Positions 23,383-43,240 of a stretch of 49,662 bases of DNA are shown piece by piece. The notes under the pieces were generated by a model. It made no database searches. It was not told the origin of the DNA and was given only the letters and a program-made list of their open reading frames with translations. The first letter of the stretch is position 1. Each line of letters starts with the position of its first letter. The DNA lies in sequence record OM475428; one strand, written 5' to 3'. This DNA is from Escherichia phage 1W. The translations under genes and the position numbers were made by a program.

Positions 23383-23390
23383 TATAATGG
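23383..23390. repeat. 8-bp target site duplication TATAATGG (right copy)
   Basis: Direct repeat of 20843-20850 abutting the IS right end. Confidence 0.8.
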
Positions 23391-23798: not shown

Positions 23799-23810
23799 AA
23801 GGAGGAAATA

Positions 23811-24104: not shown

Positions 24105-24195
24105 AAAAAGGTGAGCTGTATATGCAACGGAGGAAGAAACCCCGTTGCTGGAAGCCAGGAAAAAGTATCGGGTGTTGCTGTCCTCGGATGTTGTG

Positions 24196-25053
24196 CTAAT
24201 TGGGTGATAACAGATCCTGTGTATGGGAGTTTCCCTTTTTGCGTGCGTTGATGCTGGTAACGGCAAACGTCATGATGAACAAAACCGCGAATAAGACGAC
24301 AATCGTCGGAGCTGGTGCGCTGTCGATAAAAAAGGACAACCAGACACCAGTCATTGACACTATTACCGATATGCCAGTCGCCAGTAGGAGCGCAATATGA
24401 AAGCGTTGTGTCAGGAGTACCGCAATGGCGCCAGGCGCAATGAGCAGAGAAATGGAGAGAATGATACCTACCGCTTTCAGCGTCGCCACAATGGTCAGAG
24501 AGACCATGCACAGCAGCCCATAATGCAGCCATCTCGTATGCAAACCGCTTACCTGCGCCTGTTGATAATCAAAGCTGAACAGCAAAAAATCCCGCCATTT
24601 TACGCTAATAACAAGTGTAACCAGCCCGGCAATAATCATCGTCTGGATTATATCGCCGATGGTTATCCCGAGCATGTCGCCGAAAAGAATATGGTCAAGA
24701 TGTACGTCTGGTTTGACTGCAATATACAAGATCAGACCTGCGGCAAACATGCCAGAAAAAACAATCCCCATCACTGTATCTTGCTTGATTCGGCTGTTGT
24801 CTTTCAGGTATCCCGTCGCCACCGCGCAGAATACTCCGGCGACGAATGCCCCTGTAGCCAAAGGTAACCCCAGAATCCAGGCAAGCACGATGCCAGGAAA
24901 AACCGCATGACTCATCGCGTCACCCATCAGTGCCCAACCTTTCAGGACCAGAAAGACCGACAGCAGCGCACAGGGTATGGAAACTACCAGTGAAATCAGC
25001 AGTGCGTGACTCATAAAGGTGAACTGCAGTGGCTCCAGTAATAATGCCATCAT
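24196..25053 (-). CDS. sitD: Mn/Fe ABC transporter permease SitD
   Basis: 285 aa polytopic membrane protein, ABC-3 permease family; last gene of a four-gene operon with overlapping stop/start junctions. Confidence 0.85.
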   Translation of the reverse strand: MMALLLEPLQFTFMSHALLISLVVSIPCALLSVFLVLKGWALMGDAMSHAVFPGIVLAWILGLPLATGAFVAGVFCAVATGYLKDNSRIKQDTVMGIVFSGMFAAGLILYIAVKPDVHLDHILFGDMLGITIGDIIQTMIIAGLVTLVISVKWRDFLLFSFDYQQAQVSGLHTRWLHYGLLCMVSLTIVATLKAVGIILSISLLIAPGAIAVLLTQRFHIALLLATGISVIVSMTGVWLSFFIDSAPAPTIVVLFAVLFIMTFAVTSINARKKGNSHTQDLLSPN

Positions 25054-25907
25054 GAGCGATCCTCCAGCGCCTTATGCGCACGCCGACGATTTGCCAAAAG
25101 CCCATGGGTGGGCGCAAAGACAAATGCTAAAAGAAACAGCAGTGTCTGCGCCACCACGATGATTCCACCTGTCGCGCCGTCCAGAAAGTAACTGACCCAC
25201 GCGCCGAGGAAACTGGTTACACTGCCAATAGTTACAGCAATCATGAGCAGGCGGGGAAAACGATCGGTTAACAACCATGCTGTTGCACCGGGAGTCACCA
25301 CCAGACAGATCACCAGAAAGGCACCAACCGTTTGCAGCGCCGCAACGGTCGAAACCGACAGCAGGGTGAAGAAGAGGAGTTTTAATCTGCCCGGATGCAA
25401 TCCAATAGCACGGGCGTGATTCTCGTCGAAAAAGGTCACCATAAGATCTTTCCATTTGAAAAAAAGCACGATGATCGAGAGAATGCCAATGATAGTGAGT
25501 TGCAGGATATCCGCCGGATCGATTGCCAGAATATTGCCCAGGACGATGGTCTGAATGTTCACAGATGTCGGGTTCAATGACACCATAAACAGCCCCAGGC
25601 CAAAAAAGGACGAGAAGATCAGACCGATGATGGCATCTTCTTTTAAGCGGGTGCGTTGGTTAAGAAACAGCATGCTGCCCGCAGCCAGTCCGCCGGAAAA
25701 GAAGGCTCCCAGAGAAAACGGAAGCCCCAGCATATATGCCCCCGCAACACCCGGGACAATAGAGTGCGACAACGCATCGCCAATCAGCGACCAGCCTTTT
25801 AGCATCAGATAGCATGACAGGAAAGCGCAGAGACCGCCGACCATCGCCGAGACCCACATCGCATTGAGCATATATTCATAGCTGAAGGGTTCCAGTAGCA
25901 CGTTCAT
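25050..25907 (-). CDS. sitC: Mn/Fe ABC transporter permease SitC
   Basis: 285 aa paralogous permease; overlaps neighbours by 4 nt. Confidence 0.85.
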
Positions 25908-26731
25908 CTTTCTTCCCTCTGCACCGCTGACGGTCGATGAGCCACAAAAGGGCGTTCATCGTCAGTAATAATGCTTTCTTCCGAGCCGTTAAGTGTGACA
26001 TGGCGCAGTACGCCGCTAAAAGCCAGCTCTAGGTTCTCGGCTGTAAAAGTGGTGTCTGTCGGCCCGCTTGCCAGGACGGTGCCTTTGACCATGACCGTAT
26101 AATCGCAAAATGTCGTGACGGATCCGAGATTGTGTGTTGAGACAAGCATCGTTTTGCCTTCCGCGCGTAACTCCCTCAACAGGCTGATGATTTTGGCTTC
26201 GGTTTTCACATCAACGCCAGTAAAAGGTTCATCCAGCAGGATCACATCACCCTGCTGTGCAATCGCTCTCGCCAGAAAGACGCGTTTCTTTTGTCCACCG
26301 GAAAGCTCGCCGATTTGTCGATGGCGAAAATTCACCATATCGACACGTTCCAGCGCATCGGTGACAATTTGACGATCCCTCTTTTTGGCGATACGCAACA
26401 TACCCATATGCCCATAGCGGCCCATCATCACCACATCTTCCACCAGTACAGGAAATGACCAGTCAACCTCTTCTGACTGAGGGACGTAGGCAACCAGGTT
26501 TTTCTGTAACGCCTGTCGCGTGGGAATACCCAGAACAGATATCTTTCCGCTGGTCAGACGCACAAATCCCATAATCGCTTTAAACAACGTCGATTTTCCG
26601 GAACCGTTTACCCCAACCAGAGCGGCAATAGATCCACTTGGTACTGTGAAGGATGCATCGCGCAGTGCTGTGTGCCCGTTATGCCAGGTGACAGCAACAT
26701 CATTAACGACAATGCCTGCAGATTGCATCAT
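25904..26731 (-). CDS. sitB: Mn/Fe ABC transporter ATP-binding protein SitB
   Basis: Walker [13 protein letters not shown] signature LSGGQKKR, Walker B ILLDEP. Confidence 0.9.
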
Positions 26732-27645
26732 TATTTCTCCCTTTTCCCGGCTTTAATTCCCTGTACCAGCGTACTGGTAGTAACCTTAAGAAGGTCGATA
26801 TACGTCGGTACCGGGCCGTTTTCTGTGCTCAGGGAATCGACATAGAGCACACCGCCGTAGTGTGCGCCGGTTTCACGCGCAACCTGACGCGCTGGTTTAT
26901 CGGAAATCGTACTCTCGCTAAAGACTGCCGGGATATGATTTTTCTTAACTATATCAACAACCTTACGTACCTGCTGCGGTGTTCCTTGTTGATCGGCATT
27001 AATCGGCCACAGATAAAGCTCTTTTAGCCCCAAATCGCGTGCGAGATAAGAAAAAGCCCCTTCACTGGTGACCATCCATCGCTGATTCTCAGGGAGTTCC
27101 GTAATCTGCTTACGCAGGGGGGCAAGGGTTTGGGTAATCTTGGCTTTATAAGTATCGGCATTGCGTTGGTAGGTTTGTGCATTTGCCGGATCGTATTTTA
27201 TCAACGCATCACGAATATTATCGACGTAAATCAGAGCATTATCTGGCGACATCCATGCATGGGGGTTAGGTTTGCCCTCATAGGGTCCTTCGGTGATCCC
27301 TACAGGCGTCACACCCGAAGAGACAATTACTTCTGGAACCCCATTGAGATGCTGGTAAAAGCGTTGGAACCACAATTCCAGATTCATACCATTGGCGAGA
27401 ATCAGTTGTGCCCCCTGCGCACGTTTAATATCGCCAGGGGTAGGCTGATACTCATGAATTTCTGCACCAGGCTTGGTTATGGATGAGACTTCTGCAGCAT
27501 CTCCCGCCACGTTTTTGGCCATATCCGCGATGATGGTAAATGTTGTAATGACCTTAAATTTTTCAGTTGCACTTGCCTGAAATGCGATCGAGCAGGTGAG
27601 TGCGAGGCCCCCCAAGAGCATGGTTACTTTTTTTATTGAGCGCAT
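26731..27645 (-). CDS. sitA: Periplasmic Mn/Fe-binding protein SitA (cluster A-I substrate-binding protein) with signal peptide
   Basis: 304 aa; N-terminal signal peptide; TroA/ZnuA-like fold features; first gene of the operon. Confidence 0.9.
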
Positions 27646-27677
27646 AATTTAGTACCTATAGTGAGCAAAATTAGAAC

Positions 27678-29981: not shown

Positions 29982-30207
29982 CAGCGATTATCCGTTGGAG
30001 TTTTGGGTTTGCGTTTATTGGGAGTTGCGGTTCTGCAAGCGTTCCTACAAAACGGGAATTTCGGTCAATCATCCAGTAGCGACCAACTTTTATAGCGGGT
30101 GGGGCCATCATTTTCCCTTGCGCGTATTTTTTCAGAACTCGCTCACTTGGTGCTAAGTCCCCAAATTCTTCTTTAGCCCAGTCCTGTAAAGTGATTAGTC
30201 GAGACAT
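29971..30207 (-). CDS. xis: Excisionase
   Basis: 78 aa overlapping the int start; winged-helix Xis-like sequence (KVGRYWMIDRN). Confidence 0.75.
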   Translation of the reverse strand: MSRLITLQDWAKEEFGDLAPSERVLKKYAQGKMMAPPAIKVGRYWMIDRNSRFVGTLAEPQLPINANPKLQRIIADGC

Positions 30208-30346
30208 TTGTCCTCCTCTTAGCTGCTGAGGGAGTTTGTGACCGATATATCTGACATGATATTAAGCTCATGGCAGGTACATCTCTTGACTGGTCATAGA
30301 GATAAATTTAATGCTGAGAAATGCAGTATTGAATTTATCAAATTTT

Positions 30347-30586
30347 CTATTTCCTGCGTATGGCACGTAACTTCTTAATGTGTTCTGCCGTTTCGATCTC
30401 TTCTGCTATCCGATCTGCATCAGCTTTATTCACAGGTTCAAAGTCATGATTAAAGCGGAACATGCTGGCGATACATGTTCTGCCTTTTCGGATGTAGTGA
30501 ACTTTGTTGTGGGTAGAACGCAGGATTTTGCAGGGAGTGCCGTGGTGGTCGACGTACCAGGTGTTAGGAAAAATGATTCTGAACAT
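30347..30586 (-). CDS. Hypothetical early-left protein
   Basis: 79-aa ORF with ATG start in the xis-exo accessory region; no recognisable family. Confidence 0.45.
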   Translation of the reverse strand: MFRIIFPNTWYVDHHGTPCKILRSTHNKVHYIRKGRTCIASMFRFNHDFEPVNKADADRIAEEIETAEHIKKLRAIRRK

Positions 30587-30633
30587 TTTTACACCTCAGT
30601 TGGACGATGTTGAAATTTGCTGCTTTGAGGCCA

Positions 30634-30852
30634 TCACAGTCCCCATTGTTTGTTCTTAAGTTCGATCTCCTCCTGGCAACTTGCACAAGTCCGACAACCC
30701 TGAACGGCCAGGCGTCTTCGTTCATCTATCGGATCGCCACACTCACAACAATGAGTGGCAGATATAGCCTGGTGGTTCAGGCGGCGCATTTTTATTGCTG
30801 TGTTGCGCTGTAATTCTTCAATTTCTGATGCTGAATCAATGATGTCTGCCAT
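30634..30852 (-). CDS. DksA/TraR-family C4 zinc-finger protein
   Basis: 72 aa with CxxC-x17-CxxC (CCECGDPIDERRRLAVQGCRTCASC), typical of phage TraR-like proteins that bind RNA polymerase. Confidence 0.75.
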   Translation of the reverse strand: MADIIDSASEIEELQRNTAIKMRRLNHQAISATHCCECGDPIDERRRLAVQGCRTCASCQEEIELKNKQWGL

Positions 30853-30950
30853 CTTTCATTAATCCCTGAATTGTTGGTTAATACGCTTGAGGGTGAATGC
30901 GAATAATAAAAAAGGAGCCTGTAGCTCCATGATGATTTTATTTTTCATGT

Positions 30951-31232
30951 TCACCGTTCCTTAAAGACGCCGTTTAACATGCCGATCGCCAGGCTTAAAT
31001 GAGTCGGTGTGAATCCCATCAGCGTTACCGTTTCGCGGTGCTTCTTCAGTACGCTACGGCAAATGTCATCGACGTTTTTATCCGGAAACTGCTGTCTGGC
31101 TTTTTTGATTTCATAATTAGCCTGACGGGCAATACTGCGAAGGGCGTTTTCTTGCTGAGGTGTCATTGAACAAGTCCCATGTCGGCAAGCATAAGCACAC
31201 AGAATATGAAGCCCGCTGCCAGAAAAATGCAT
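30951..31232 (-). CDS. Hypothetical protein (likely shorter; an internal start at MTPQQE is plausible)
   Basis: ORF in the early-left accessory region; no motif recognised. Confidence 0.4.
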   Translation of the reverse strand: MHFSGSGLHILCAYACRHGTCSMTPQQENALRSIARQANYEIKKARQQFPDKNVDDICRSVLKKHRETVTLMGFTPTHLSLAIGMLNGVFKER

Positions 31233-31242
31233 TCAGTGGTTG

Positions 31243-31434
31243 TCATACCTGGTCTCTCTCATCTGCTTCTGCTTTCGCCACCATCATTTCCAGCTTTTGT
31301 GAAAGGGATGTGGCTAACGTATGAAATTCTTCGTCTGTTTCTACTGGTATTGGCACAAACCTGACTCCAATTTGAGCGAGGCTATGTGCCATCTCGATAC
31401 TCGTTCTTAACTCAACGGGAGATGCTTTGTGCAT
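31243..31434 (-). CDS. Hypothetical small protein
   Basis: 63-aa ORF immediately upstream of the previous one, co-directional with the early-left operon. Confidence 0.4.
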   Translation of the reverse strand: MHKASPVELRTSIEMAHSLAQIGVRFVPIPVETDEEFHTLATSLSQKLEMMVAKAEADERDQV

Positions 31435-31585
31435 ACAGCCCCCCGTTTATTATTTATCTCCTCAGCCAGCCGCTGGGCTTTCAGTGGATTTTGGATAACA
31501 GAAAGGCCGGGAAATACCCAGCCTCGCTTTGTAACGGAGTAGACGAAAGTGATCGCGCCTACCCGGATATTATCGTGAGGATGCG

Positions 31586-32266
31586 TCATCGCCATTGCTC
31601 CCCAAATACAAAACCAATTTCAGCCAGTGCCTCGTCCATTTTTTCGATGAACTCCGGCACCATCTCGTCAAAACTCGCCATGTACTTTTCATCCCGCTCA
31701 ACCACGACATAATGCAGTCCTTCACGCTTCATACGCGGGTCATAGTTGGCAAAGTACCAGGCATCTTTTCGCGTCACCCACATGCTGTACTGCACCTGGG
31801 CCATGTAAGCCGACTTTATGGCCTCGAAACCACCGAGCCGGAACTTCATGAAATCCCGGGAGGTAAACGGGCATTTCAGCTCAAGGCCATTGCCGTCACT
31901 GCATAAACCATCGGGAGAGCAGGCGGTGCGCATACTTTCGTCGCGATAGATGATCGGGGATTCAGTAACATTCACGCCGGAAGTGAATTTAAACAGGGTT
32001 CTGGCGTCGTTCTCGTACTGTTTTCCCCAGGCCAGCGCCTTAGCATTAACTTCCGGAGCCACACCGGTGCAAACCTCAGCCAGCAAGGTGTGGAAGTAGG
32101 ACATTTTCATGTCAGGCCACTTCTTTCCTGAGCGGGGCTTTGCTATCACGTTGTGAACTTCTGAAGCGGTGATGACGCCGAGCCGTAATTTGTGCCATGC
32201 ATCATCCCCCTGTTCGACAGCTCTCACGTCGATCCCGGTACGCTGCAGGATAATGTCCGGTGTCAT
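31586..32266 (-). CDS. exo: Lambda exonuclease (Red alpha)
   Basis: 226 aa; essentially identical to lambda Exo from recall ([54 protein letters not shown]). Confidence 0.95.
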
Positions 32267-33048
32267 GCTGCCACCTTCTGCTCAGTGGCTTTCTGTTTCA
32301 GGAATCCAAGAGCTTTCACTGCTTCGGCTTGTGTCAGTTCTGACGATGCGCGAATGTCGCGGCGAAATATCTGGGAACAGAGCGGCAATAAGTCGTCATC
32401 CCATGTTTTATCCAGGGCGATCAGCAGAGTGTTAATCTCCTGCATGGTTTCATCGTTAACCGGAGTGATGTCGCGTTCCGGCTGACGTTCCGCAGTGTAT
32501 GCAGTATTTTCGACAATGCGCTCGGCTTCATCCTTGTCATAGATACCAGCAAATCCGAAGGCCAGACGGGCACACTGAATCATGGCTTTATGCCGTAACA
32601 TCCGTTTGGGATGCGACTGCCACGGCCCCGTGATTTCTCTGCCTTCGCGAGTTTTGAATGGTTCGCGGCGGCATTCATCCATCCATTCGGTAACGCAGAT
32701 CGGATGATTGCGGTCTTTGCGGTAAATCCGGCACGTACATGATTCATTGTCCTGCTCAAAGTCCATGCCATCAAACTGCTGGTTTTCATTGATGATGCGG
32801 GACCAGCCATCAACGCCCACCACCGGAACGATGCCGTTCTGCTTATCAGGGAAGGCGTAAATTTCTTTCGTCCACGGATTAAGGCCGTACTGGTTGGCGA
32901 CGATCAGCAATGCGATGAACTGCGCATCGCTGGCATCACCTTTAAATGCCGTCTGACGAAGAGTGGTGATCAGTTCCTGTGGGTCGACAGAATCCATGCC
33001 GACACGTTCAGCCAGCTTCCCGGCTAGCGTTGCGAGTGCTGTACTCAT
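32263..33048 (-). CDS. bet: Recombination protein Bet (Red beta)
   Basis: 261 aa; essentially identical to lambda Bet from recall ([44 protein letters not shown]). Confidence 0.95.
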
Positions 33049-33053
33049 CCGTT

Positions 33054-33350
33054 TTATACCTCTGAATCAATATCAACATGGTGGTGAGCAATGGTTTCAA
33101 CCATGTACCGGATGTGTTCTGCCATGCGCTCCTGAAACTCAACATCGTCATCAAACGCACGGGTAATGGCTTTTTTGTTGGCCCCGCAGCGTTGCAAATG
33201 ATCGATGCAGAGTGATTCAAACAGGTGCTGTGGAAGACCTTTTTCCATGTCGTCTGCCAGTTCTGCCTCTTTCTCTTCACGGGCGATCTGCTGGTAGTGA
33301 CGCGCCCAGCTTTGAGCCTCAAGACGATCCTGAATGTAATAAGCGTTCAT
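33054..33350 (-). CDS. gam: Gam (RecBCD inhibitor, GamS form)
   Basis: 98 aa; near-identical to lambda GamS from recall ([21 protein letters not shown]). Confidence 0.9.
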
Positions 33351-33425
33351 GGCTGAACTCCTGAAAATGGCTGTGAAAATATCGCCTGCGAAATGCCGGG
33401 CTGATTAGGTAAACAGGAAAGGGGA

Positions 33426-33836
33426 TTAGTGATTCAGGCCGTTGCCGCGTCCGTCGAGAAAAACTTCCACGAGCAAATCACGGGTATAAGTGCGCTCGAT
33501 GCCGCGATGCAGATAAAGCCGTCCGCGTAAATTAGCTGATGCAGTCCAGGTACCATCTTTGTGTTTGACCAGCATTCCTGGCATGACCGCACCGCGATTA
33601 ACGGTCTGCGTTCCGTAATGTTGATGAACCATAAAAACTCCTGCCCGTAAGCTGGGCTGCTGAACATATAGAGACTTCTGCGCGTATTCAGGCGGTGGAT
33701 GGCCGCCGGTTGTCATAACTAAGCCGCCTCGTTGAAGCGACTGAGGTATGAGGTGTTGAGTTGATTTCAGCTGGTCACACCGACGTTCACGCGTCCGCTT
33801 CACCCCTCGCACTCCCCGGAGCCTGCTGAAATTCAA
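33426..33836 (-). CDS. Hypothetical protein at the first position of the leftward early operon; true start uncertain (the track start is TTG; in-frame ATGs give 96- or 68-aa products)
   Basis: Located directly downstream of the inferred OL/PL region; the conceptual N-terminus is Arg-rich ([15 protein letters not shown]) but precedes the first ATG. Confidence 0.35.
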
Positions 33837-33899
33837 GCTGCGGATCTAAGCGGTCATCGCAACGGTGAATCAGGTGATTGCCGTATCGTTGTGTTGTTG

Positions 33900-34030
33900 C
33901 GACATGGTGATAATAGCTATTGTTATTGGCTGTATCAATACTTATTGCTATTGATTGATGTGTTTTGATATTAACTGTTTGATAGCAAAAAGAATTAATT
34001 TTGTGACTTGTATCGCATAGCGATAACTGA
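33900..34030 (-). promoter_or_regulatory. Candidate OL/PL operator-promoter region
   Basis: Contains GCTATTGTTAT (33916-33926) and TTGCTATTG (33945-33953), which recur in the cI-cro intergenic region (36344-36354, 36342-36350), plus the near-palindrome TATCGCATAGCGATA (34011-34025). Confidence 0.5.
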
Positions 34031-34071
34031 AGGGAGGATGTGGTGGTTTTTCGAACGGTTTGTGTGATGAG

Positions 34072-34105
34072 GGGACAAAAGAAAACCCGGCACGGTGGCC
34101 GGGAT
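34072..34105 (-). terminator. Intrinsic terminator ending the cI-linked operon (timm-like)
   Basis: On the minus strand the stem cccggccaccgtgccggg is followed by ttttcttttgt, immediately after the stop of the 125-aa gene. Confidence 0.7.
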
Positions 34106-34107
34106 TC

Positions 34108-34485
34108 TTACGCAGGTAGGTAAAGATATGATTGTGGTGGCTTAATATTACTACCTAGAGCAGAGATAGGAATTGGTTCTTTATATCTTTCCACTTCACC
34201 AATTTTTATTGCGTAGGCCTTTTCTCTACCTGAATAATATGAGTCATAAAATTGCTTAGAAATACCTGCGTGTTTTTCCGTCTTTTTCCAAAGAGATTCC
34301 GGTTCGTCACTTAGTATTGATTCAATACGGAATTGACCAACAACTTTACCTAATGGCATCGTGGCATAAATAACAACGGTGCTAATTTGCGGATTTTTGA
34401 ATATACCTTTACGAAACTCGAACCGCTTTGTTCCGTTCAATATTTTTTCTGCAAACTCAGGCTTAATGGATAATAAAACTTTCAT
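34108..34485 (-). CDS. ASCH-domain (PUA-like fold) protein; second gene of the candidate cI-linked accessory operon
   Basis: 125 aa; N-terminal pattern MKVLLSIKPEFAEKILNGTKRFEFRK is typical of ASCH domains; AT-rich; start overlaps the upstream gene by 23 nt. Confidence 0.6.
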   Translation of the reverse strand: MKVLLSIKPEFAEKILNGTKRFEFRKGIFKNPQISTVVIYATMPLGKVVGQFRIESILSDEPESLWKKTEKHAGISKQFYDSYYSGREKAYAIKIGEVERYKEPIPISALGSNIKPPQSYLYLPA

Positions 34486-35536
34486 TTATCTTGCCTAACT
34501 CGATGATCTTTAAGAACTGCTCATTTGTGAGTTTAAAGTGACTCCATCGGAATGCACGCGAACCATTTAGCCCCACATGATCTATTAAAATAGCACGATT
34601 GGGTCTCTTTGGCAAAGACAGATTGTATGTGAATCTTATAATGAAAGGGTATCGACGTTCTTTATAGATTTTTCTGAGTTCATCTTCAGAAAATACGCTA
34701 AAACGAATACAATAGTCTACAAAACTATCTTCGCTTAAAAATTCAGAAATATTTTTTACGCTCTCAACTACACATAATGTACTGGCTACAGAACGATAGC
34801 GAGCTGGCCCTTTTTTGTCTCCGGTTCTATAGATGACAATGATATCTCCTCTTTTCATTCCCATCACAGAACGCATTCCACATATGTAAATTTTATGAAT
34901 GCTGTTAGCATGGGATATATCTTTGACAATATCTGGTGATTCATTTACAAGTTTTGAATCAGGGAATAGTCTAGTGTGATATTCGGGATAAATCGCCAGT
35001 AAATATTTGTTGGCCCTTGATGTCATTATTCGAGGGTAATCTAATAAAATATCACCATAAGGCTCATGCAAAGACCTCGCATATACAAACTCTTTCCCGT
35101 TATGTGTTTCTTTTTCACCATGAATGTAAAATCCGTACGTTTGGAAAAGTTTTATTAGATGGACGTGTTTGTCGAAAACAGTAACATAAATATCATCAGA
35201 TTTTGATGAAAATGCATGGTCAAACGCTTTTTTTAGAAATCGTTGTCCGCGAAGGGTGCCTTTAGATTCAAATTTGAATGTTCCTATCTTTAGATGACGT
35301 CCTGGTGGGAGCGCTGGATTAATGTCATTTGCATCATCATTTTCTTTTAGATACATAAAACCTTCGATTTTATGCTTGTCATCATAGAGCACATAAGCTG
35401 ATTCTCCTTCTCTGGCTTTTTTTTCTAACCAAAGAGGAAACTCTTTATAATCTTTTTTTAAAGAGTCAAAAAATGGGTCATTGTGATCAAAATCAGAGAA
35501 TTTCTCATATTTTAAAGTATCCATTAAGTTCTCCAT
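34463..35536 (-). CDS. 357-aa protein with N-terminal GNAT-like acyltransferase-type motifs and an uncharacterised, possibly PUA-like, C-terminal region; first gene of the candidate cI-linked accessory operon
   Basis: ATG 68 bp downstream of the cI stop, same strand; motifs LRGQRFLKKAF and HLIKLFQTYGFYIHGEK resemble GNAT motifs A and B; AT-rich relative to the phage backbone. Confidence 0.5.
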   Translation of the reverse strand: MENLMDTLKYEKFSDFDHNDPFFDSLKKDYKEFPLWLEKKAREGESAYVLYDDKHKIEGFMYLKENDDANDINPALPPGRHLKIGTFKFESKGTLRGQRFLKKAFDHAFSSKSDDIYVTVFDKHVHLIKLFQTYGFYIHGEKETHNGKEFVYARSLHEPYGDILLDYPRIMTSRANKYLLAIYPEYHTRLFPDSKLVNESPDIVKDISHANSIHKIYICGMRSVMGMKRGDIIVIYRTGDKKGPARYRSVASTLCVVESVKNISEFLSEDSFVDYCIRFSVFSEDELRKIYKERRYPFIIRFTYNLSLPKRPNRAILIDHVGLNGSRAFRWSHFKLTNEQFLKIIELGKINESFIIH

Positions 35537-35604
35537 TCTAAAATGAATAATTAAGTTGTTTTACTGAATGAGCACAATGCCCGGTTGATAATTTTTAATT
35601 GGTA

Positions 35605-36297
35605 CTATCCATGCTTCCTATACGTCTGCGGCATGCTCCCAATAACTTTCCCGAAGATAAATACCCGGTTCATCTCATCTTTCTCGATCGGGTCCCACGG
35701 TGAGTAGCTTTTGTTATCAGAGATAACCAGCAGCTTATCCTTCATCATTTGCAGGCGCTTTACATGGGCTGTGTCGTCGTACAGAAACGCATAGATACCA
35801 TCACCGTCGAAAGATTTAACCGTGATATCAACGAATAGAAGATCACCAGGTTCAATCGTTCCTGACATGCTGTCACCGCGTACGTTAATGATGCGGATAT
35901 TTTCTGCCTTCCTACCATCGAACATGTGACGAGCATCGTCAAACGAGTACTCAACCGAGCGTAGAACTTCTACAAACTCACGGTTGATGACTCCCGGCCC
36001 GGCACTCACTTCTATATCAAGAACGTCAATCTTGAAGTATTTGGGATGGTTGGCAGTAGGCTTCCCTAATTGTTGACCGTCATTTCTCATCGGGCCTATG
36101 CCTGATGAGAGCCACTCTGTTCGAACACCCAATGCATTAGCTATTTCAACAATTTTTGTTGAGCCGCGCGCGTTGCCGCTTGTCAGTCTCCAGATTGTGG
36201 GTTGAGCTACGCCAGACGCCTTTGCAAGAGCGCCTTGAGACATTCCAGATTGTTCCATCGCTAGGTTTAAGCGATCAGCAAGAGTTTCTTTTTTCAT
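35605..36297 (-). CDS. cI: CI-type repressor (HTH plus LexA/S24-like autocleavage domain)
   Basis: HTH QGALAKASGVAQPTIWRL; C-terminal S24 features (VRGDSMSG with the catalytic Ser, Lys in HVKRL); ATG at 36297 preferred over the TTG at 36333; divergent from cro. Confidence 0.85.
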   Translation of the reverse strand: MKKETLADRLNLAMEQSGMSQGALAKASGVAQPTIWRLTSGNARGSTKIVEIANALGVRTEWLSSGIGPMRNDGQQLGKPTANHPKYFKIDVLDIEVSAGPGVINREFVEVLRSVEYSFDDARHMFDGRKAENIRIINVRGDSMSGTIEPGDLLFVDITVKSFDGDGIYAFLYDDTAHVKRLQMMKDKLLVISDNKSYSPWDPIEKDEMNRVFIFGKVIGSMPQTYRKHG

Positions 36298-36407
36298 AAG
36301 TTTTAATTTATACGCTTGCGTATTGATGGTCAAAACACGTTTTGCTATTGTTATGATTAATACGCATTGCTATTATTTATTCATTGTAATACCAATAGGA
36401 ATTAATA
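36298..36407. promoter_or_regulatory. OR / PRM-PR operator-promoter region
   Basis: Divergent cI/cro intergenic region with palindromes ATACGCTTGCGTAT (36310-36323) and CAAAACacGTTTTG (36331-36344), and repeats shared with the OL region. Confidence 0.6.
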
Positions 36408-36635
36408 ATGACAAATCAAACCATTCAACTCGCAATCAGTATTACAGGTAGTCAAAAACGACTGGCAGATCTATGCGGTGTAGCCCAGCCCACTGTTTGG
36501 CGTTGGCTACACGGTGGCGGAATTGATGCCCGCTATGTAATGAAAATTGTCTCAGCCACTGGTGGAAAGATTAAACCAGCAGATATTCGTCCCGACCTCG
36601 CACCATTGTTTAACGCGAGTAATTCTGCCGCCTAA
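36408..36635 (+). CDS. cro: Cro-like repressor
   Basis: 75 aa; HTH (QKRLADLCGVAQPTVWRWLHGG); divergently transcribed from cI. Confidence 0.8.
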   Translation: MTNQTIQLAISITGSQKRLADLCGVAQPTVWRWLHGGGIDARYVMKIVSATGGKIKPADIRPDLAPLFNASNSAA

Positions 36636-36659
36636 TCTGCGGCGTTAACTGATAAGGCA

Positions 36660-37205
36660 ATGACTATGCAACCACTTACATACCAACAGACTAGCGGATT
36701 TAGCCCGACTGCGGTGATAAATCGTTCTCAAACAAAACAGGCGCCAGGCCACGAAAAAATCCGTGATGCCGTTCGCGCCTGGTCGGCTGCAGATAATCAG
36801 GATGTTGTTGCCGCACTCATTGTGAATGAGTATCGGGAGCAGGGCGGCGGCACCATCGATTTTCCTGATGATGTCAGCCGTGCACGCCAGAAGCTGTTCC
36901 GCTTCCTCGATAACAAATTCGATTCTGAAAAATACCGAAATAACGTGCGTGAACTGACCCCGGCAATTCTGGCGGTACTACCGCTGGAATATCGCGGCCA
37001 CCTGGTTGAGCAGGATAGCTTCATGGCTCGGCTGGCTGAAATGGAAAAGGAACTCAGTGAGGCAAAACAGGCTGTCATTCTCAACGCACCACGCCACCAG
37101 AAACTGAAGGAGATGAGTGAAGGCATTGTGTCGATGTTTCGTGTGGACCCGGATCTGGCTGGTCCACTGATGGCGATGGTCACCACCATGCTGGGGGCAA
37201 TATGA
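36660..37205 (+). CDS. Regulatory protein at the cII position (not lambda CII-like in sequence)
   Basis: 181 aa immediately after cro and before O; coiled-coil segment near the C-terminus; family uncertain. Confidence 0.45.
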   Translation: MTMQPLTYQQTSGFSPTAVINRSQTKQAPGHEKIRDAVRAWSAADNQDVVAALIVNEYREQGGGTIDFPDDVSRARQKLFRFLDNKFDSEKYRNNVRELTPAILAVLPLEYRGHLVEQDSFMARLAEMEKELSEAKQAVILNAPRHQKLKEMSEGIVSMFRVDPDLAGPLMAMVTTMLGAI

Positions 37206-37291
37206 CAGGTTCGGAAATGGCGAAAGCCGGTCTGCGCGAACAGAACCGACTTTCAGGTGCAAATCGTAACACACTCATTGCGGGAGGAATT

Positions 37292-38221
37292 ATGGCAAAC
37301 ACTGCTGAGATATTCAATTTTCCAGTGCCGGATGTGGCACAAAAGGAGCCGCGCGTGGCAGATCTCGATGATGGTTATACGCGCATTGCAAATGAGTTGC
37401 TGGAAGCTGTGATGCTGGCCGGATTAACACAGCACCAGCTTCTGGTCTTCCTGGCTGTCATGCGCAAAACATATGGCTTTAATAAAAAACTGGATTGGGT
37501 GAGCAACGAGCAACTTTCCGAGTTGACCGGGATATTGCCGCACAAGTGTTCTGCTGCAAAAAGTGTTCTGGTAAAGCGTGGGATTTTTATTCAGAGCGGG
37601 CGGAATATCGGCATTAATAATGTGGTCAGTGAATGGTCAACATTACCCGAATCAGGTAAGAAAAATAAAGTTTACCTGAAAGAGGTAAATTTACCTGAAT
37701 CAGGTAAGAAAAGTTTACCCAAATCAGGTAAAGGCGTTTACCCGAATCAGGTAAACACAAAAGACAAACTAACAAAAGACAATATAAAACCTTTTTCGTC
37801 CGAGAATTCTGACGAATCCTCTGACCAGCCAGAAAACGATCTTCCTGTGGTGAAACCGGATGCTGCAATTCAGAGCGGCAGCAAGTGGGGGACAGCAGAA
37901 GACCTGACCGCCGCAGAGTGGATGTTTGACATGGTGAAGACCATCGCGCCATCAGCCAGAAAACCAAATTTTGCAGGGTGGGCTAACGATATCCGCCTGA
38001 TGCGTGAACGTGACGGACGTAACCACCGCGACATGTGCGTGCTGTTCCGCTGGGCATGCCAGGACAACTTCTGGTCCGGTAACGTGCTGAGTCCGGCCAA
38101 ACTCCGCGACAAGTGGACTCAACTCGAAATCAACCGTAACAAGCAACAGGCTGGCGTGACAGCCGGAAAATCAAAACTCGACCTGACAAACACTGACTGG
38201 ATTTACGGGGTGGATTTATGA
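37292..38221 (+). CDS. O: Replication initiator O
   Basis: N-terminal region resembles lambda O (VADLDDGYTRIANELLEA, RKTYGFNK); the gene contains the iteron array; start MANTAEIF chosen by analogy to lambda O. Confidence 0.85.
   Translation: MANTAEIFNFPVPDVAQKEPRVADLDDGYTRIANELLEAVMLAGLTQHQLLVFLAVMRKTYGFNKKLDWVSNEQLSELTGILPHKCSAAKSVLVKRGIFIQSGRNIGINNVVSEWSTLPESGKKNKVYLKEVNLPESGKKSLPKSGKGVYPNQVNTKDKLTKDNIKPFSSENSDESSDQPENDLPVVKPDAAIQSGSKWGTAEDLTAAEWMFDMVKTIAPSARKPNFAGWANDIRLMRERDGRNHRDMCVLFRWACQDNFWSGNVLSPAKLRDKWTQLEINRNKQQAGVTAGKSKLDLTNTDWIYGVDL
37643..37755 (+). repeat. Replication origin iterons inside O (four to five copies of TTTACC(C/T)(G/A)AATCAGGTAA(G/A)) followed by an A/T-rich segment
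   Basis: Direct repeats at about 37643, 37690, 37714 and 37737, with a degenerate copy near 37671; A/T-rich 37756-37800; classic lambdoid ori architecture. Confidence 0.8.
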
Positions 38222-38919
38222 AAAACATCGCCGCACAGATGGTTAACTTTGACCGTGAGCAGATGCGCCGGATCGCCAACAACATGCCGGAACAGTACGA
38301 CGAAAAGCCGCAGGTACAGCAGGTAGCGCAGATCATCAACGGTGTGTTCAGCCAGTTACTGGCAACTTTCCCGGCGAGTCTGGCTAACCGTGACCAGAAC
38401 GAACTGAACGAAATCCGCCGCCAGTGGGTTCTGGCTTTCCGGGAAAACGGGATCACCACAATGGAACAGGTTAACGCAGGAATGCGCGTAGCCCGTCGGC
38501 AGAATCGACCATTTCTGCCATCACCCGGGCAGTTTGTTGCATGGTGCCGGGAAGAAGCATCCGTTATCGCCGGACTGCCAAACGTCAGCGAGCTGGTTGA
38601 TATGGTTTACGAGTATTGCCGGAAGCGAGGCCTGTATCCGGATGCGGAGTCTTATCCGTGGAAATCAAACGCGCACTACTGGCTGGTTACCAACCTGTAT
38701 CAGAACATGCGGGCCAATGCGCTTACTGATGCGGAATTACGCCGTAAGGCCGCAGATGAGCTTGTCCATATGACTGCGAGAATTAACCGTGGTGAGGCGA
38801 TCCCTGAACCAGTAAAACAACTTCCTGTCATGGGCGGTAGACCTCTAAATCGTGCACAGGCTCTGGCGAAGATCGCAGAAATCAAAGCTAAGTTCGGACT
38901 GAAAGGAGCAAGTGTATGA
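38218..38919 (+). CDS. P: Replication protein P (DnaB helicase loader)
   Basis: 233 aa; essentially identical to lambda P from recall (MKNIAAQMVNFDREQMRRIANNMPEQYDEKPQVQQVAQIINGVFSQLL). Confidence 0.95.
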   Translation: MKNIAAQMVNFDREQMRRIANNMPEQYDEKPQVQQVAQIINGVFSQLLATFPASLANRDQNELNEIRRQWVLAFRENGITTMEQVNAGMRVARRQNRPFLPSPGQFVAWCREEASVIAGLPNVSELVDMVYEYCRKRGLYPDAESYPWKSNAHYWLVTNLYQNMRANALTDAELRRKAADELVHMTARINRGEAIPEPVKQLPVMGGRPLNRAQALAKIAEIKAKFGLKGASV

Positions 38920-39218
38920 CGGGCAAAGAGGCAATTATTCATTACCTGGGGACGCATAAGAGCTTCTGTGCACAGGACGTTGCCGCGGTAACAGGCGCAA
39001 CCGTAACCAGCATAAATCAGGCTGTGGCTAAAATGGCGCGGGCAGGAATCCTGGTCGTTGATGGTAAGGTCTGGCGAACGGTGTATTATCGGTTCGCTAC
39101 CAGAGAAGAACGGGAAGGAAAGGTGAGCGCGAATTTGATTTTTAAGGAGTGTCGCCAGAGTGCCGCGATGAAACGGGTATTGAGGGTATATAAAAGAACA
39201 TCAATGGGTACACAATGA
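38916..39218 (+). CDS. ren: Ren (Rex exclusion relief protein)
   Basis: 100 aa; near-identical to lambda Ren from recall (MTGKEAIIHYLGTH). Confidence 0.85.
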   Translation: MTGKEAIIHYLGTHKSFCAQDVAAVTGATVTSINQAVAKMARAGILVVDGKVWRTVYYRFATREEREGKVSANLIFKECRQSAAMKRVLRVYKRTSMGTQ

Positions 39219-39285
39219 TGAAACAGGTGAGTTGAGTTCAAACTGTAGTACAATTCTCTCCAGTTTGAACAGGAAAGAATATGCT

Positions 39286-39618
39286 ATGAACCCTTATATT
39301 TATCTTGGTGGTGCAATACTTGCAGAGGTCATTGGTACAACCTTAATGAAGTTTTCAGAAGGTTTTACACGGTTATGGCCATCTGTTGGTACAATTATTT
39401 GTTATTGTGCATCATTCTGGTTATTAGCTCAGACGCTGGCTTATATACCTACAGGGATTGCTTATGCTATCTGGTCAGGAGTCGGTATTGTCCTGATTAG
39501 CTTACTATCATGGGGATTTTTCGGCCAACGGTTGGACCTGCCAGCCATTATAGGCATGATGTTGATTTGTGCCGGTGTGTTGGTTATTAATTTATTGTCA
39601 CGAAGCACACCACATTAA
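39286..39618 (+). CDS. emrE: SMR-family multidrug efflux protein EmrE
   Basis: 110 aa from MNPYIYLGGAILAEVIGTTLMKFSEGF; matches E. coli EmrE (encoded in the DLP12 prophage) from recall; four TM helices. Confidence 0.9.
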   Translation: MNPYIYLGGAILAEVIGTTLMKFSEGFTRLWPSVGTIICYCASFWLLAQTLAYIPTGIAYAIWSGVGIVLISLLSWGFFGQRLDLPAIIGMMLICAGVLVINLLSRSTPH

Positions 39619-39873
39619 AAATAATTTATTTTTAAACGACTAAAATATGGAGGTTCGTATATTTGTATGGGCCTCGTTTTATGCTTTTTGTTAATGTCTT
39701 TAGTTTTTATTCATTCTTTTGATCTTTCAAGACCATGGTGTAAGAAAATTGCAATACGATTATTGTTGTATATTCAAGATAATGTGACCTTAATTGTCTT
39801 TTTAAATAAAAATTAAACAAAAATCATATCTCACCACTAAGGTTTATAAAAGCATACTTTAGCAGGTGTCACC

Positions 39874-41400
39874 ATGAAAAAAGCCATAGCATATATGCGA
39901 TTTTCATCACCAGGTCAGATGTCTGGTGATTCATTAAACCGCCAGAGAAGGCTTATTACTGAATGGCTAAAGGTAAATAGTGATTATTACCTTGATACCG
40001 TAACGTATGAAGATTTGGGGTTAAGCGCATTCAATGGAAAGCATGCACAATCAGGAGCTTTTTCGGAATTTTTAGATGCTATAGAACATGGTTACATATT
40101 GCCAGGGACTACATTGTTAGTTGAAAGTCTGGACAGACTTTCAAGAGAAAAAGTCGGTGAAGCGATTGAGCGTCTGAAATTGATTTTGAATCACGGTATT
40201 GATGTTATAACTCTTTGCGATAATACAGTCTATAATATAGACTCATTGAATGAGCCATATTCATTAATAAAAGCCATACTTATAGCACAAAGGGCAAATG
40301 AAGAAAGCGAGATAAAGTCAAGTCGGGTTAAATTATCATGGAAGAAAAAACGGCAGGATGCACTGGAATCAGGCACGATTATGACGGCGTCTTGTCCGAG
40401 ATGGCTCTCATTGGATGACAAAAGAACAGCTTTTATTCCAGACCCCGACAGGGTGAAAACGATTGAGCTAATTTTTAAACTCAGGATGGAAAGGCGATCA
40501 TTGAATGCAATAGCTAAGTATTTAAATGATCATGCTGTAAAAAATTTTTCAGGAAAAGAAAGTGCATGGGGGCCTTCTGTAATTGAAAAATTATTAGCGA
40601 ATAAAGCTCTGATAGGTATATGCGTACCTTCATATCGTGCAAGAGGGAAAGGGATAAGTGAAATCGCTGGCTATTATCCCAGAGTCATATCAGATGATTT
40701 GTTTTACGCTGTACAGGAAATTCGGTTGGCACCTTTTGGTATTAGCAATAGTAGCAAGAATCCTATGCTAATAAATCTACTTCGAACAGTTATGAAGTGT
40801 GAGGCTTGTGGTAATACCATGATTGTTCATGCGGTATCTGGACGTTTGCATGGCTATTATGTTTGTCCGATGAGAAGATTACATCGATGTGACAGGCCAT
40901 CAATAAAAAGAGATTTGGTTGATTATAATATCATTAATGAATTGCTTTTTAATTGTAGCAAAATTCAACCAGTTGAAAACAAGAAAGATGCTAATGAAAC
41001 TTTAGAGTTAAAAATTATTGAGCTTCAGATGAAAATTAATAATTTAATCGTTGCATTGTCTGTCGCGCCTGAAGTTACCGCTATAGCAGAGAAAATAAGA
41101 CTATTAGATAAGGAATTACGAAGGGCTTCGGTATCATTAAAAACTTTGAAGAGTAAAGGGGTGAGTTCACTTGGTGATTTTCATGCTATTGATTTAACCA
41201 GTAAAAATGGGCGAGAGCTATGTCGTACACTTGCCTATAAAATATTCGAAAAAATTATAATTAATACAGATAATAAAACCTGTGATATCTATTTTATGAA
41301 TGGCATTGTTTTTAAACACTATCCTTTAATGAAAGTAATATCCGCCCAGCAGGCGATAAGTACTCTTAAATATATGGTTGATGGTGAGGTTTATTTTTGA
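39874..41400 (+). CDS. ybcK: Large serine recombinase (resolvase/invertase catalytic domain, recombinase domain, zinc ribbon); DLP12 YbcK-like
   Basis: 508 aa; N-terminal catalytic region with a Ser in MRFSSPGQ; Cys cluster CEACGN...CPMRRLHRC; AT-rich gene. Confidence 0.8.
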   Translation: MKKAIAYMRFSSPGQMSGDSLNRQRRLITEWLKVNSDYYLDTVTYEDLGLSAFNGKHAQSGAFSEFLDAIEHGYILPGTTLLVESLDRLSREKVGEAIERLKLILNHGIDVITLCDNTVYNIDSLNEPYSLIKAILIAQRANEESEIKSSRVKLSWKKKRQDALESGTIMTASCPRWLSLDDKRTAFIPDPDRVKTIELIFKLRMERRSLNAIAKYLNDHAVKNFSGKESAWGPSVIEKLLANKALIGICVPSYRARGKGISEIAGYYPRVISDDLFYAVQEIRLAPFGISNSSKNPMLINLLRTVMKCEACGNTMIVHAVSGRLHGYYVCPMRRLHRCDRPSIKRDLVDYNIINELLFNCSKIQPVENKKDANETLELKIIELQMKINNLIVALSVAPEVTAIAEKIRLLDKELRRASVSLKTLKSKGVSSLGDFHAIDLTSKNGRELCRTLAYKIFEKIIINTDNKTCDIYFMNGIVFKHYPLMKVISAQQAISTLKYMVDGEVYF

Positions 41401-41724
41401 GTAATAATCACTTTTTCAACCGTGCTATGGTATGAAAGTAAAGTAACTAATATGATATTAACTATCTTGAACGAAGCGCCCTGAGCTATAGTTTTACTAT
41501 AGGCACTGTCACTGGATGTTGGCATTCTTGCTCTAGTAGCTCAACAATACCCAATCACAAAACAATTCACTGATAACAAACTTTGTGCACGTGCTTGGTT
41601 ATGGCGAACAGGTGATGTTAACCTCTTGCCAGAATGCCACTCCACTTCATTAAGTATCTGAGCACCGAGAGGCTGGTCACGCCCCCATTAAAAATAATTT
41701 CTTTTGAATCGAGTGAAATAGGTT

Positions 41725-41751
41725 AGCCCGCATAAGTGCGGGCTGCTTTTT
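41725..41751. terminator. Bidirectional hairpin terminator between ybcK and the convergent hydrolase gene
   Basis: Stem agcccgca / tgcgggct followed by gcttttt on the plus strand; abuts the hydrolase stop on the minus strand. Confidence 0.6.
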
Positions 41752-42793
41752 ACAGGTCAGCGTTTGTTTTTTGTTGTTGGGTAGCGGTTTTTATGGGGGT
41801 TCCCAGGTTTTTAGTAAACCACTCAACAACTCTGTTTATAATAATTGGCTGATACCATGTATTATCGCCATGCTCGGCCCCTTCTACCAGCACGTACTCA
41901 GCGTTATCACCGTTCTTCTTCAACATCCTGAATAGTTTGGCGCTTTGCTCAGGTGAAACCAGAGTGTCTTTGCTACCATGCATAATAAGAAATGGGGGTT
42001 TTACTCCTTTCATATGTCCGATTGGACTGGCGTTTAGCGCTTTTTCTTTTGACGCTGTGATGGGGGCTCCCGCAAAATTTCTGAATGCAGGGCCATTGAT
42101 CATTAAGGCTTCGGTTACGGCAGGAGAGCGATGAACCTCCTGCACTGATTCAGGGAACCCCTCGCCAATATTCAACAAGTCAGAAATCCCATAAAGTGTG
42201 GCAACTGCCTGAACATCTGAGGATTGCTGAAGAAAGTCACCTTTATCAAAGGTTTTGTCACCATTTGTAGTTCCCATCATCTGGGCAAGCCATCCACCGG
42301 CAGAGTCACCCAGAACTCCGATTCTTTGAGGATCAATCCCATAATTGCTGGCATGCTCTCTCAGGTAACGTATTGCAGCTTTTCCATCCTCAACTGGTGC
42401 TGGAAATGTATCAGGAATTGTTCTGTATTCTACAGCGGCCACAACAAAACCAGCTTCTGCCAGAGCCATTCTCATTTCAATAAATTTGTCATGTTCAGAA
42501 GACATGAATCCGCCGCCGGGATAATAAATAATGGCTGGTTTTAAATCATTTGTTCGCGGGACAAGAACTGACATGTGAAGCTGTCTGACAGAACGAGTTC
42601 CTTTTATCTGGGAATAAACAACATCACCAATGAGATCGACCTGGTTTCTGGTCGGTGAAACACTAATGATATCTGCACCCGGGGTGTAACCAGGAAGATT
42701 AGTCTGGACAGGTGTTGCACAACTCCCGACCGACATGGCCATTGACATACCATACAATAGTGTTGCAGATGATAATATCTTGTTAATTTTCAT
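41750..42793 (-). CDS. Secreted/lipoprotein alpha/beta-hydrolase (esterase/lipase family)
   Basis: 347 aa; signal peptide with a Cys (MSVGSC); oxyanion-hole motif YYPGGGF; nucleophile elbow GDSAGG. Confidence 0.75.
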   Translation of the reverse strand: MKINKILSSATLLYGMSMAMSVGSCATPVQTNLPGYTPGADIISVSPTRNQVDLIGDVVYSQIKGTRSVRQLHMSVLVPRTNDLKPAIIYYPGGGFMSSEHDKFIEMRMALAEAGFVVAAVEYRTIPDTFPAPVEDGKAAIRYLREHASNYGIDPQRIGVLGDSAGGWLAQMMGTTNGDKTFDKGDFLQQSSDVQAVATLYGISDLLNIGEGFPESVQEVHRSPAVTEALMINGPAFRNFAGAPITASKEKALNASPIGHMKGVKPPFLIMHGSKDTLVSPEQSAKLFRMLKKNGDNAEYVLVEGAEHGDNTWYQPIIINRVVEWFTKNLGTPIKTATQQQKTNADL

Positions 42794-43240
42794 GTTTTAC
42801 ATGCCTTGACTTATCGGATGAAATTCTCTTACTGAATTTAACGGCAGTTTAATAGCCGTACAACTCGTGGTAGCCAGGGAAATATCCCAGTCGTGGTTAA
42901 GGTTGTACTTGACGGCTATTATTTCAACAATGCTTAAAGTGAGAGCTTAAGGTTATGCGTATGTTTTACAGTCCGAGTAGATTCTGACCAATAGCTTCTT
43001 TGTATAATTCTGTCAGAAATAAATCTTGGCTTGCATGAAGTTTGAGACCTTATCTTGTTTGATTATGAATAATCAATTCGCCATAATTGTATCACCGGAG
43101 CCTGAACAACTCCGGTGACTTCTGCGCTAAACGGGGACGTTTATGCGCACACACAATCCAAACTCTCTTCTCCCTTCACAGATGCAGAAATGCACCTGCG
43201 TTTTTTTGCATCCAGCGTCTGACCTCTGTGGAGGTGAAGC

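Follow-up and report, generated by a model that had tools for sequence, protein, structure and literature searches.

An N-less, put-less variant of the lambdoid early-left operon in Escherichia phage 1W, with a conserved two-hairpin RNA module in its leader

Introduction

Early gene expression in lambdoid phages depends, in the textbook account, on N and nut, or on put RNA in HK022. The leftward early operon of Escherichia phage 1W raises the question of how such an operon is arranged when its first open reading frame (ORF) does not resemble N from an ATG start. The DNA analyzed, termed the window throughout, is a stretch of 49,662 nucleotides (nt) from this phage (sequence record OM475428). 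The start of the operon lies within positions 33426-34030, and positions 33300-34110 are 100% identical to the corresponding parts of Escherichia phages 4A7 (RefSeq NC_049946, genus Bievrevirus), Lambda_4C10 and 3W. An earlier note, made from the sequence alone, had placed OL/PL here, had called the first leftward gene unrecognised, and had offered two alternatives: an N protein initiated at a non-ATG codon, or a different early antitermination arrangement. The operon is found here to be an N-less, put-less variant of the lambdoid early-left operon, with an uncatalogued conserved RNA module in its leader.

Results

The first gene of the PL operon

The following features define the first gene.

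33426-33632, minus strand: kil, 207-nt coding sequence, 68 amino acids (aa), predicted cell-division (FtsZ) inhibitor of the KilR/Kil family
33638-33642, minus strand: Shine-Dalgarno sequence AGGAG, 5 nt before the kil ATG, read from the sequence

The product read from ATG 33632 matched phrog_294 ("Kil protein for bacterial septation inhibition") with E 1.3e-37. Its residues 1-68 were aligned to positions 1-70 of the 73 positions of NCBIfam model NF008465 (Rac KilR-type FtsZ inhibitor) with E 1.8e-17, at a score of 63 bits that lies below the 92-bit cut-off curated by NCBI for the Rac-type subfamily. Identity is 85% with the Kil of HK225 and 42% with that of phi80; all three proteins align from their first methionine. 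RefSeq and the Prokaryotic Genome Annotation Pipeline (PGAP) annotate the same 207-nt gene, both in 4A7 and in chromosomes of E. coli O157:H7. Some GenBank records carry a "Kil" of 128-136 aa that takes in leader sequence; in the 136-aa ORF that starts at a TTG, family matches are confined to the last 68-77 residues. The gene thus did not remain unrecognised: the product of ATG 33632 is a full-length match to the KilR/Kil family, annotated as such by RefSeq and PGAP, and the PL operon begins with a kil of the ordinary KilR type, predicted to encode an FtsZ inhibitor.

KilR of the Rac prophage blocks cell division via FtsZ (PMC5793797, PMC12482147). The homologous Rac kilR is silenced by Rho/NusG (PMC5793797) and has a regulated long 5′ untranslated region (5′ UTR) with a small RNA (sRNA), KilS (PMC8175672). 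The Kil of lambda is unrelated in sequence to the KilR-type protein (PMC5793797).

Search for N, nut and put

No early ORF matched an N family in Pfam, PHROG or NCBIfam. The PHROG scan of the small early ORFs returned lambda orf60a/61/63-like families, a DksA-like protein, Ren and others, with no N among them. A tblastn search of the window with lambda N, phi80 N and HK022 Nun returned no significant match, and the RefSeq annotation of the identical genome 4A7 contains no N, the sole antiterminator listed there being Q-like. By family scans, tblastn and RefSeq annotation, then, no canonical N was found elsewhere in the early-left region, and the family scans and tblastn also support the earlier note in finding no recognisable N in the first leftward ORF.

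The PL leader and the first 2.9 kb of the PR operon were searched for nut elements. No boxA was found with ≤1 mismatch, apart from one site inside kil, and no lambda-type boxB (5-bp stem, GA..A loop). The gap between cro and cII is only 24 nt.

A covariance model of put (R2) was built from 16 sequences, namely HK022 putL and putR, HK639 putL and 13 viral-contig variants. The model recovered HK022 putL with 97 bits, HK639 putL with 92 bits and HK022 putR with 49 bits. Its best match in the window had E = 2.7 and lay at an unrelated place, and a search of the leader with nhmmer found no put. On these searches no antitermination device of the N, nut or put kind could be detected in the window. 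The suggestion of a different early antitermination arrangement holds only in a negative way, through the missing nut site and put RNA; in neither the left nor the right operon was such a device found.

The TTG frame is not an N gene

The leftward ORF at 33426-33836 extends over 136 aa from a TTG and carries the Arg-rich stretch; as described earlier, this stretch exists only in the TTG-initiated conceptual frame.

33780-33836, minus strand: TTG and Arg-rich conceptual codons, not a gene

An N-like protein with an Arg-rich motif might be translated from TTG 33836, alone or fused to Kil. Its conceptual peptide KRTRERR recalls TRRRERR of lambda N, and the frame is open through to the kil stop in the window. 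Conservation of this frame was assessed in related sequences. Identical Kil is encoded by 80 viral contigs, 79 of which share the leader, in 46 distinct leader haplotypes; frame integrity was scored over 67 distinct related sequences (haplotypes). All 136 codons were intact in 43 of the 67, but the frame was broken in the remaining 24, where it reaches a stop after 31 codons (18 haplotypes), is frameshifted by a 5-nt duplication (4) or is broken early (2). Variable sites in this part fall 11/8/8 on codon positions 1/2/3, with no third-position excess, and amino-acid replacements predominate among the changes in the Arg-rich part. The indels comprise a 1-nt deletion, a 1-nt insertion and the 5-nt duplication. 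No Shine-Dalgarno sequence was read upstream of TTG 33836, the leader Arg-rich stretch matched the Arg-rich motif of lambda N by tblastn with E = 60, no family match lies upstream of residue 60 of the ORF, and there is no nut site for such a protein to bind. With the frame broken in 24/67 haplotypes, no Shine-Dalgarno sequence, and no match to lambda N, phi80 N or HK022 Nun, a conserved N gene initiated at a non-ATG codon is refuted, and the idea is given virtually no probability in any form. The Arg-rich TTG frame arose by chance within a leader that is G-rich and non-coding.

OL/PL and the leader of the PL transcript

The control region and leader are laid out as follows.

33905-33995, no strand assigned: OL operator region with repeated CTATTG-type motifs, also present in OR (36320-36405)
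33910-33938, minus strand: PL promoter, -35 TTGATA at 33938-33933, 17-nt spacer, -10 TATTAT at 33915-33910
33633-33905, minus strand: predicted untranslated 5′ leader of the PL transcript, ∼270 nt, no conserved ORF

Exact copies of GCTATTGTTAT were located at 33916-33926 and 36344-36354, and of TTGCTATTG at 33945-33953 and 36342-36350. Segments 33900-34005 and 36300-36410 have 15 8-mers in common, against a mean of 0.64 for random phage windows and a maximum of 9 in composition-matched shuffles. A guessed operator consensus, AATANNNNATTGNTATT, failed to recover the sites, and the 8-mer sharing test was used in its place. PL is the best leftward promoter match in the region (sigma-70-like, 10/12 matches in a promoter scan); its spacer is filled by one operator motif, and the second is found right before the -35 element. 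The earlier note had the coordinates of the shared motifs right, and the sharing exceeds chance. Because a good leftward promoter also lies among these motifs, the assignment of 33905-33995 as a lambdoid OL/PL, with putative CI operator sites recurring at OR, is well supported. The PL start site is probably at ∼33905-33903 (about 33904).

Among the 46 haplotypes the leader has indels and no codon-position bias, and PGAP and RefSeq call no gene at 33633-33905. The first ∼35 nt after the PL start vary among immunity types. Leader plus kil was found at ≥80% coverage in 2199 of 5426 complete E. coli genomes (∼40%). A comparison of the leader with the Rac kilR 5′ UTR/KilS gave similarity at the level of shuffled sequences, and this candidate was rejected.

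At the start of the PL transcript, CAACAACACAAC (33888-33899, minus strand) is a perfect 12-nt complement of the R1 seed of the sRNA GcvB (GcvB nt 72-83), extended by flanking pairs. A GcvB match of ≥12 nt is reached by ∼1% of 270-nt segments of the window and may be due to chance; the 12-mer is absent from the immunity variant represented by contig L043. The idea, drawn from this complement, that the leader corresponds to the anti-sRNA AgvB of enterohaemorrhagic E. coli was rejected, given that this match length is reached by ∼1% of segments and that AgvB is encoded downstream of PR′ instead (PMC4104026).

A conserved two-hairpin RNA module

The part of the leader nearest to kil contains these elements.

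33684-33752, minus strand: two-hairpin RNA module, defined by covariance model R1, covariation and minimum free energy fold
33751-33713, minus strand: hairpin 1, a long irregular stem with a UCAUA/UAUGA base, a variable covarying middle and an invariant UU..GAG top
33707-33691, minus strand: hairpin 2, GGCGG-CCAUCCA-CCGCC
33742-33767, minus strand: 26-nt G-free C/A-rich tract AAAUCAACUCAACACCUCAUACCUCA, leading into the module, candidate Rho-binding sequence
33672-33683, minus strand: conserved box GCGCAGAAGUCU, downstream of the module and followed by the kil ribosome site

When the leader was compared by BLAST in distant mode, phi80, HK225 and HK639 were matched over the module stretch only. 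Copies from phages and from prophages in several genera (Citrobacter, Enterobacter, Lelliottia, Leclercia and others), 18 in all, were readily aligned. In this alignment hairpin 1 is formed by at least seven unrelated stem sequences, all of which pair, with compensatory changes in 7 of 11 pairs. Paired cells amount to 96.9%, compared with 82% in shuffles; none of 500 shuffles reached this value, and sliding the partners collapsed the signal. Covariance model R1 found the module in the window as a single copy with 86.2 bits (E 1e-20, filters off). In an alignment of 37 hits fitted to model R1, which includes a few weak antisense hits, compensatory (double) changes occur in 14 of 16 pairs. The minimum free energy fold of the window module is the model structure (-25.2 kcal/mol, z = -4.0), and the fold was assigned to the leftward transcript on account of invariant U-G pairs. 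Pairing of UCAUA with UAUGA lengthens hairpin 1; in the variant on contig L178 a C-G pair is replaced by G-C and AUG becomes AUC. Invariant parts are CAUAC, the UU...GAG top of hairpin 1, UUAUGA, and hairpin 2 with its loop CYAUCCA. A scan of 30000-40000 against Rfam (E ≤ 1) returned two chance hits and no match for the module, and a literature search for the hairpin-2 sequence found nothing. The module is a conserved structured RNA that is uncatalogued in Rfam.

A coding explanation of this conservation would be that ATG 33716 starts a short regulatory leader peptide (MTTGGHPPP...), with a polyproline stall that controls kil translation or Rho access. The nearly invariant UUAUGACAACCGGCGGCCAUCCACCGCC in at least 18 phages, and GAGG 10 nt upstream, are in line with such a peptide. 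However, 2-nt deletions shift the frame of the conserved bases in contigs L113, L120 and L124, and the box GCGCAGAAGUCU stands in differing reading frames among the 18 instances. The AUG is itself paired with CAU, L178 having AUC together with a compensating G on the other arm, and in the window the frame continues into kil without a stop. From the frame-shifting deletions, the changes of box frame and the AUC of L178 it follows that the embedded MTTGGHPPP ORF is not the conserved feature, and from its different frames that the box is conserved as nucleotides. The leader peptide is considered very improbable.

The module could also be a plain intrinsic terminator or attenuator of the lambda tL2 type, which would halt most PL transcripts before kil. 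In lambda, hairpin 1 has a homologue between ea10 and cIII, immediately upstream of the cIII ribosome site (CAUACC - AACGCUUCACUCGAGGCGUU - UUUCGUUAUG; contig L247 2477-2524, lambda 33476-33523, minus strand). This homologue has a short G+C hairpin before it and a U run after it, reading UUUUUCGUU, and was flagged as terminator-like; it falls inside the tL2 termination cluster that Luk and Szybalski described. The annotators of HK639 likewise label hairpin 2 with its T run a terminator. In the window, however, the hairpins are followed by CUUAGUUAUGA and UGAAUACGCG, with no U tract after either, and neither was flagged by the terminator scan. Most other copies also lack a U tract, yet sit directly behind a separate strong terminator: a G+C hairpin and T run stands directly 5′ of CAUACC in 16 of the first 18 copies, and is absent from the window copy. 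The invariant loop and bulge sequences, moreover, exceed what a terminator needs. A tL2-type terminator is therefore judged quite unlikely here, though less so than the leader peptide.

The surroundings of the module were also compared with a rut site, for which a C-rich, G-poor and mostly unpaired RNA of about 70-80 nt would be expected. Segment 33763-33686 is 36% C and 19% G and is accompanied by the 26-nt G-free tract, but a large part of it is base-paired; its C/G ratio of 1.87 compares with 0.57 in 33863-33786. In some haplotypes a tandem duplication of CTCAA at ∼33761-33765 extends the G-free C/A tract from 26 to 31 nt.

The 117-nt segment between PL and the module

Upstream of the module lies a segment peculiar to this lineage.

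33753-33869, minus strand: clade-specific leader segment, 117 nt, G-rich, in the position that putL occupies in put-type phages

This segment might, alone or with the module, be a new cis-acting processive antiterminator RNA that does the job of putL in HK022 and HK639, carrying PL transcripts past the terminators before xis/int. Its place just downstream of PL and ahead of the first gene agrees with the location of put, in position only. Two contigs of put phages (L136, L138) have the same layout, with PL, putL, ∼25 nt, the module, a ribosome site and the gene in succession and no terminator between them. The segment has been retained behind at least three different OL/PL (immunity) types and occurs in the 2199 E. 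coli genomes noted above, and terminator-like hairpins are present further downstream in the operon.

The sequence of the segment argues the other way. It has no similarity to put by covariance model or hidden Markov model, and RNAalifold on 18 haplotypes gave no compensatory base-pair change in the clade-specific leader. The variants can accommodate a hand-built 13-bp stem (33836-33822 with 33774-33761), but its support goes no further than G-U transitions and it was rejected. The segment tolerates 1-nt indels and the 5-nt duplication. An inverted-repeat search found no second, rightward copy of any leader element above chance, and there is none in the right operon. No homologue of 33869-33753 was found outside one closely related E. 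coli clade, among phage records and 35 Kil loci of other Enterobacteriaceae; its conservation may accordingly reflect only recent common descent. Folding energy was uninformative: the z-scores of -0.77 for the whole leader and -0.03 for its unique part show no excess, and genuine put RNAs gave -0.7, -1.1 and +0.3. A new antiterminator RNA in place of putL is considered unlikely, and the wider proposal, that the segment represents a previously unknown class of cis-acting processive antiterminator RNA replacing N/nut in a common lambdoid lineage, is marginally less likely again.

The module and operon in related systems

Searched in full with model R1, the phi80 genome yielded one copy of the module (80 bits). 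This copy belongs to the left operon, where it directly follows tL1A, the intrinsic terminator behind N, and stands ∼130 nt before the annotated Rho-dependent terminator tL1B. Like the window, phi80 has cI, a YdaS-like Cro, a YdaT-like CII of 180 aa with a very short cro-cII gap, the module, and a Kil of 42% identity. Unlike the window, it has nutL, N and tL1A upstream of the module, where the window has none of these and the 117-nt unrelated segment joins PL to the module; its kil also lies several genes beyond the module.

The remaining comparisons with HK225, HK639 and the put phages were made on partial genome segments. In HK225 the module lies directly after a terminator and immediately before kil, and in HK639 it follows a terminator downstream of putL. 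Many put phages also carry it in the left operon. HK022 and HK639 resemble 1W in being lambdoid phages without N; HK639 has the module, and the L136/L138 order of PL, putL, module and first gene is that of the window. They differ in that the segment of the window at the put position is unrelated and has neither put sequence or structure nor structural support of its own.

A conserved stretch of ∼60 nt right after PL (AUCCAUCGAAACGAAACAUCGA.AGCUGAG.GAAGUUAGCCAGCGGCG; L005 1271-1343, L007 1239-1290, L136 6093-6155) is common to HK639, HK225 and put-type contigs. It precedes putL in HK639 and L136, and in HK225 it occurs without any put sequence.

Lambda shares with the window OL/PL operators that recur at OR, the gam-bet-exo block, and hairpin 1 (CAUACC - stem - GUUAUG) just upstream of cIII. 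By contrast, the window is without N, nutL, tL1, ral, sieB, ea10 and cIII, while in lambda there is no hairpin 2 and a U tract follows hairpin 1.

At the Rac kilR locus of E. coli K-12, a toxic KilR-family gene is likewise first in a leftward operon, YdaS/YdaT-type immunity is adjacent and there is no N. The two leaders have no sequence similarity, however, the module is absent, and RecET takes the place of Red. Model R1 found no module in the Rac and HK022 segments examined.

Genes and terminators downstream of kil

Downstream of kil the operon continues leftward.

33054-33350, minus strand: gam (Pfam Gam, E 1.8e-62)
32263-33048, minus strand: bet (RefSeq annotation of the identical phage 4A7)
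31586-32266, minus strand: exo (RefSeq annotation of the identical phage 4A7)
31503-31525, minus strand: first sizeable leftward terminator-like hairpin, just after exo, 9 pairs, poor T tract
30914-30928, minus strand: better terminator-like site, GGAGCTACAGGCTCC then TTTTTT, ahead of the DksA-like gene, xis and int

From PL through exo, the terminator scan gave a single weak terminator-like site, inside kil (33483-33467). As there is no convincing intrinsic terminator over this distance, kil and the Red genes could plausibly be expressed without antitermination.

Neighbouring genes and other observations

Upstream of OL, and in the right arm, the following features were recorded.

35605-36297, minus strand: cI, first in the leftward local order
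34463-35536 and 34108-34485, minus strand: PDC-M11A/B candidate defence pair (PADLOC match)
34086-34103, minus strand: strong intrinsic terminator, CCCGGCCACCGTGCCGGG then a T run; 6 G-C pairs and TTTTCTTTTG in the scan
36408-36635, right arm: YdaS-like Cro
44716-45114, right arm: Q-like antiterminator

The terminator at 34103-34086 closes the leftward cI/PDC-M11 transcript just upstream of OL and is followed in leftward order by the A+T-rich control region, kil, gam, bet and exo. The PDC-M11 pair (34108-35536, minus strand), between cI and OL, occupies the position of lambda rexAB. Its 357-aa protein matched PADLOC PDC-M11A with E 2e-133 and its 125-aa ASCH-domain protein matched M11B with E 7e-52. 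The GenBank relative PV340567 names the pair GevT toxin and GevA antitoxin, and related O157:H7 prophages have a SIR2-family gene at this site.

In the right arm the YdaT-like CII lies 24 nt downstream of cro and is followed by O, P, ren and DLP12-like accessory genes; the right arm resembles that of the defective K-12 prophage DLP12. A repeat cluster inside the O-like replication gene (TTTACCTGA.../TCAGGTAAA, 37644-37757), presumably origin iterons, is the source of a spurious Rfam match to rliD and of several palindromes. A promoter-like site at 43059-43087 precedes the nin-like block of the right operon. For a lambdoid phage the cargo (∼20900-27650 and 39232-46385) is large; as annotated in 4A7, the identical phage, it includes insertion sequence transposases, the sitABCD iron/manganese transporter operon, an emrE/qacE-like gene, a 508-aa serine recombinase and an esterase, with an OmpC/NmpC-like porin after Q.

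Discussion

The anatomy of the operon, with a promoter, a non-coding leader, kil first, N, nut and put absent and a real module, is regarded as probable. On this anatomy PL would fire leftward from ∼33904 and give an untranslated leader of ∼270 nt. Translation would begin first at ATG 33632 behind AGGAG, yielding the 68-aa KilR-type FtsZ inhibitor, with gam, bet and exo next. Compared with lambda and phi80, the part from PL to the tL2/cIII-proximal hairpin (nutL, N, tL1 and accessory genes) is missing, with the 117-nt clade-specific segment in its place; a short unrelated leader connects PL to the element with which the delayed-early block normally begins.

The module may work at the RNA level to gate the toxic kil, most likely as a site of Rho entry or attenuation with C-rich, G-poor tracts on its flanks. 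The idea of a Rho gate comes from these C-rich and G-poor surroundings, the Rho-dependent tL1B annotated downstream of the module in phi80, and the Rho/NusG silencing of Rac kilR. It is put forward tentatively, as possible rather than probable. The module could alternatively be an RNA-processing site, a translation-control site or a decayed tL2-type terminator.

Several points weigh against this account. The PL start site, the untranslated state of the leader and the lack of termination are inferred from the sequence. The Rho gate is argued by analogy, from the phi80 annotation and Rac kilR, together with base composition, and part of the C-rich sequence is base-paired in the module model. The terminator label in HK639 and the U run in lambda mean that the ancestral role of the module may simply be termination. 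Xis and int lie beyond the terminator-like hairpins at 31525-31503 and 30928-30914, and Q lies beyond two good terminator-like hairpins in the right operon, after the replication genes (39650-39675 and 41724-41745, plus strand). Given these terminators, a phage without any antitermination would need another route to express xis/int and Q, and none was found.

The lineage described here has neither N/nut nor put at PL and is among the commonest E. coli prophages, including those of O157:H7; it follows that it either dispenses with early antitermination or uses something undescribed. A tempting mis-annotation, the overlong "Kil" that includes the leader, is removed. The covariation-supported RNA element now defined, and absent from Rfam, stands at the head of the delayed-early left genes of lambdoid phages, whether these are N-type, put-type or N-less. 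It can be traced to the lambda hairpin upstream of cIII, a link between a widespread RNA element of prophages and the classical tL2/cIII-upstream region. Through this defined 69-nt element, the gating of toxic kil genes becomes testable.

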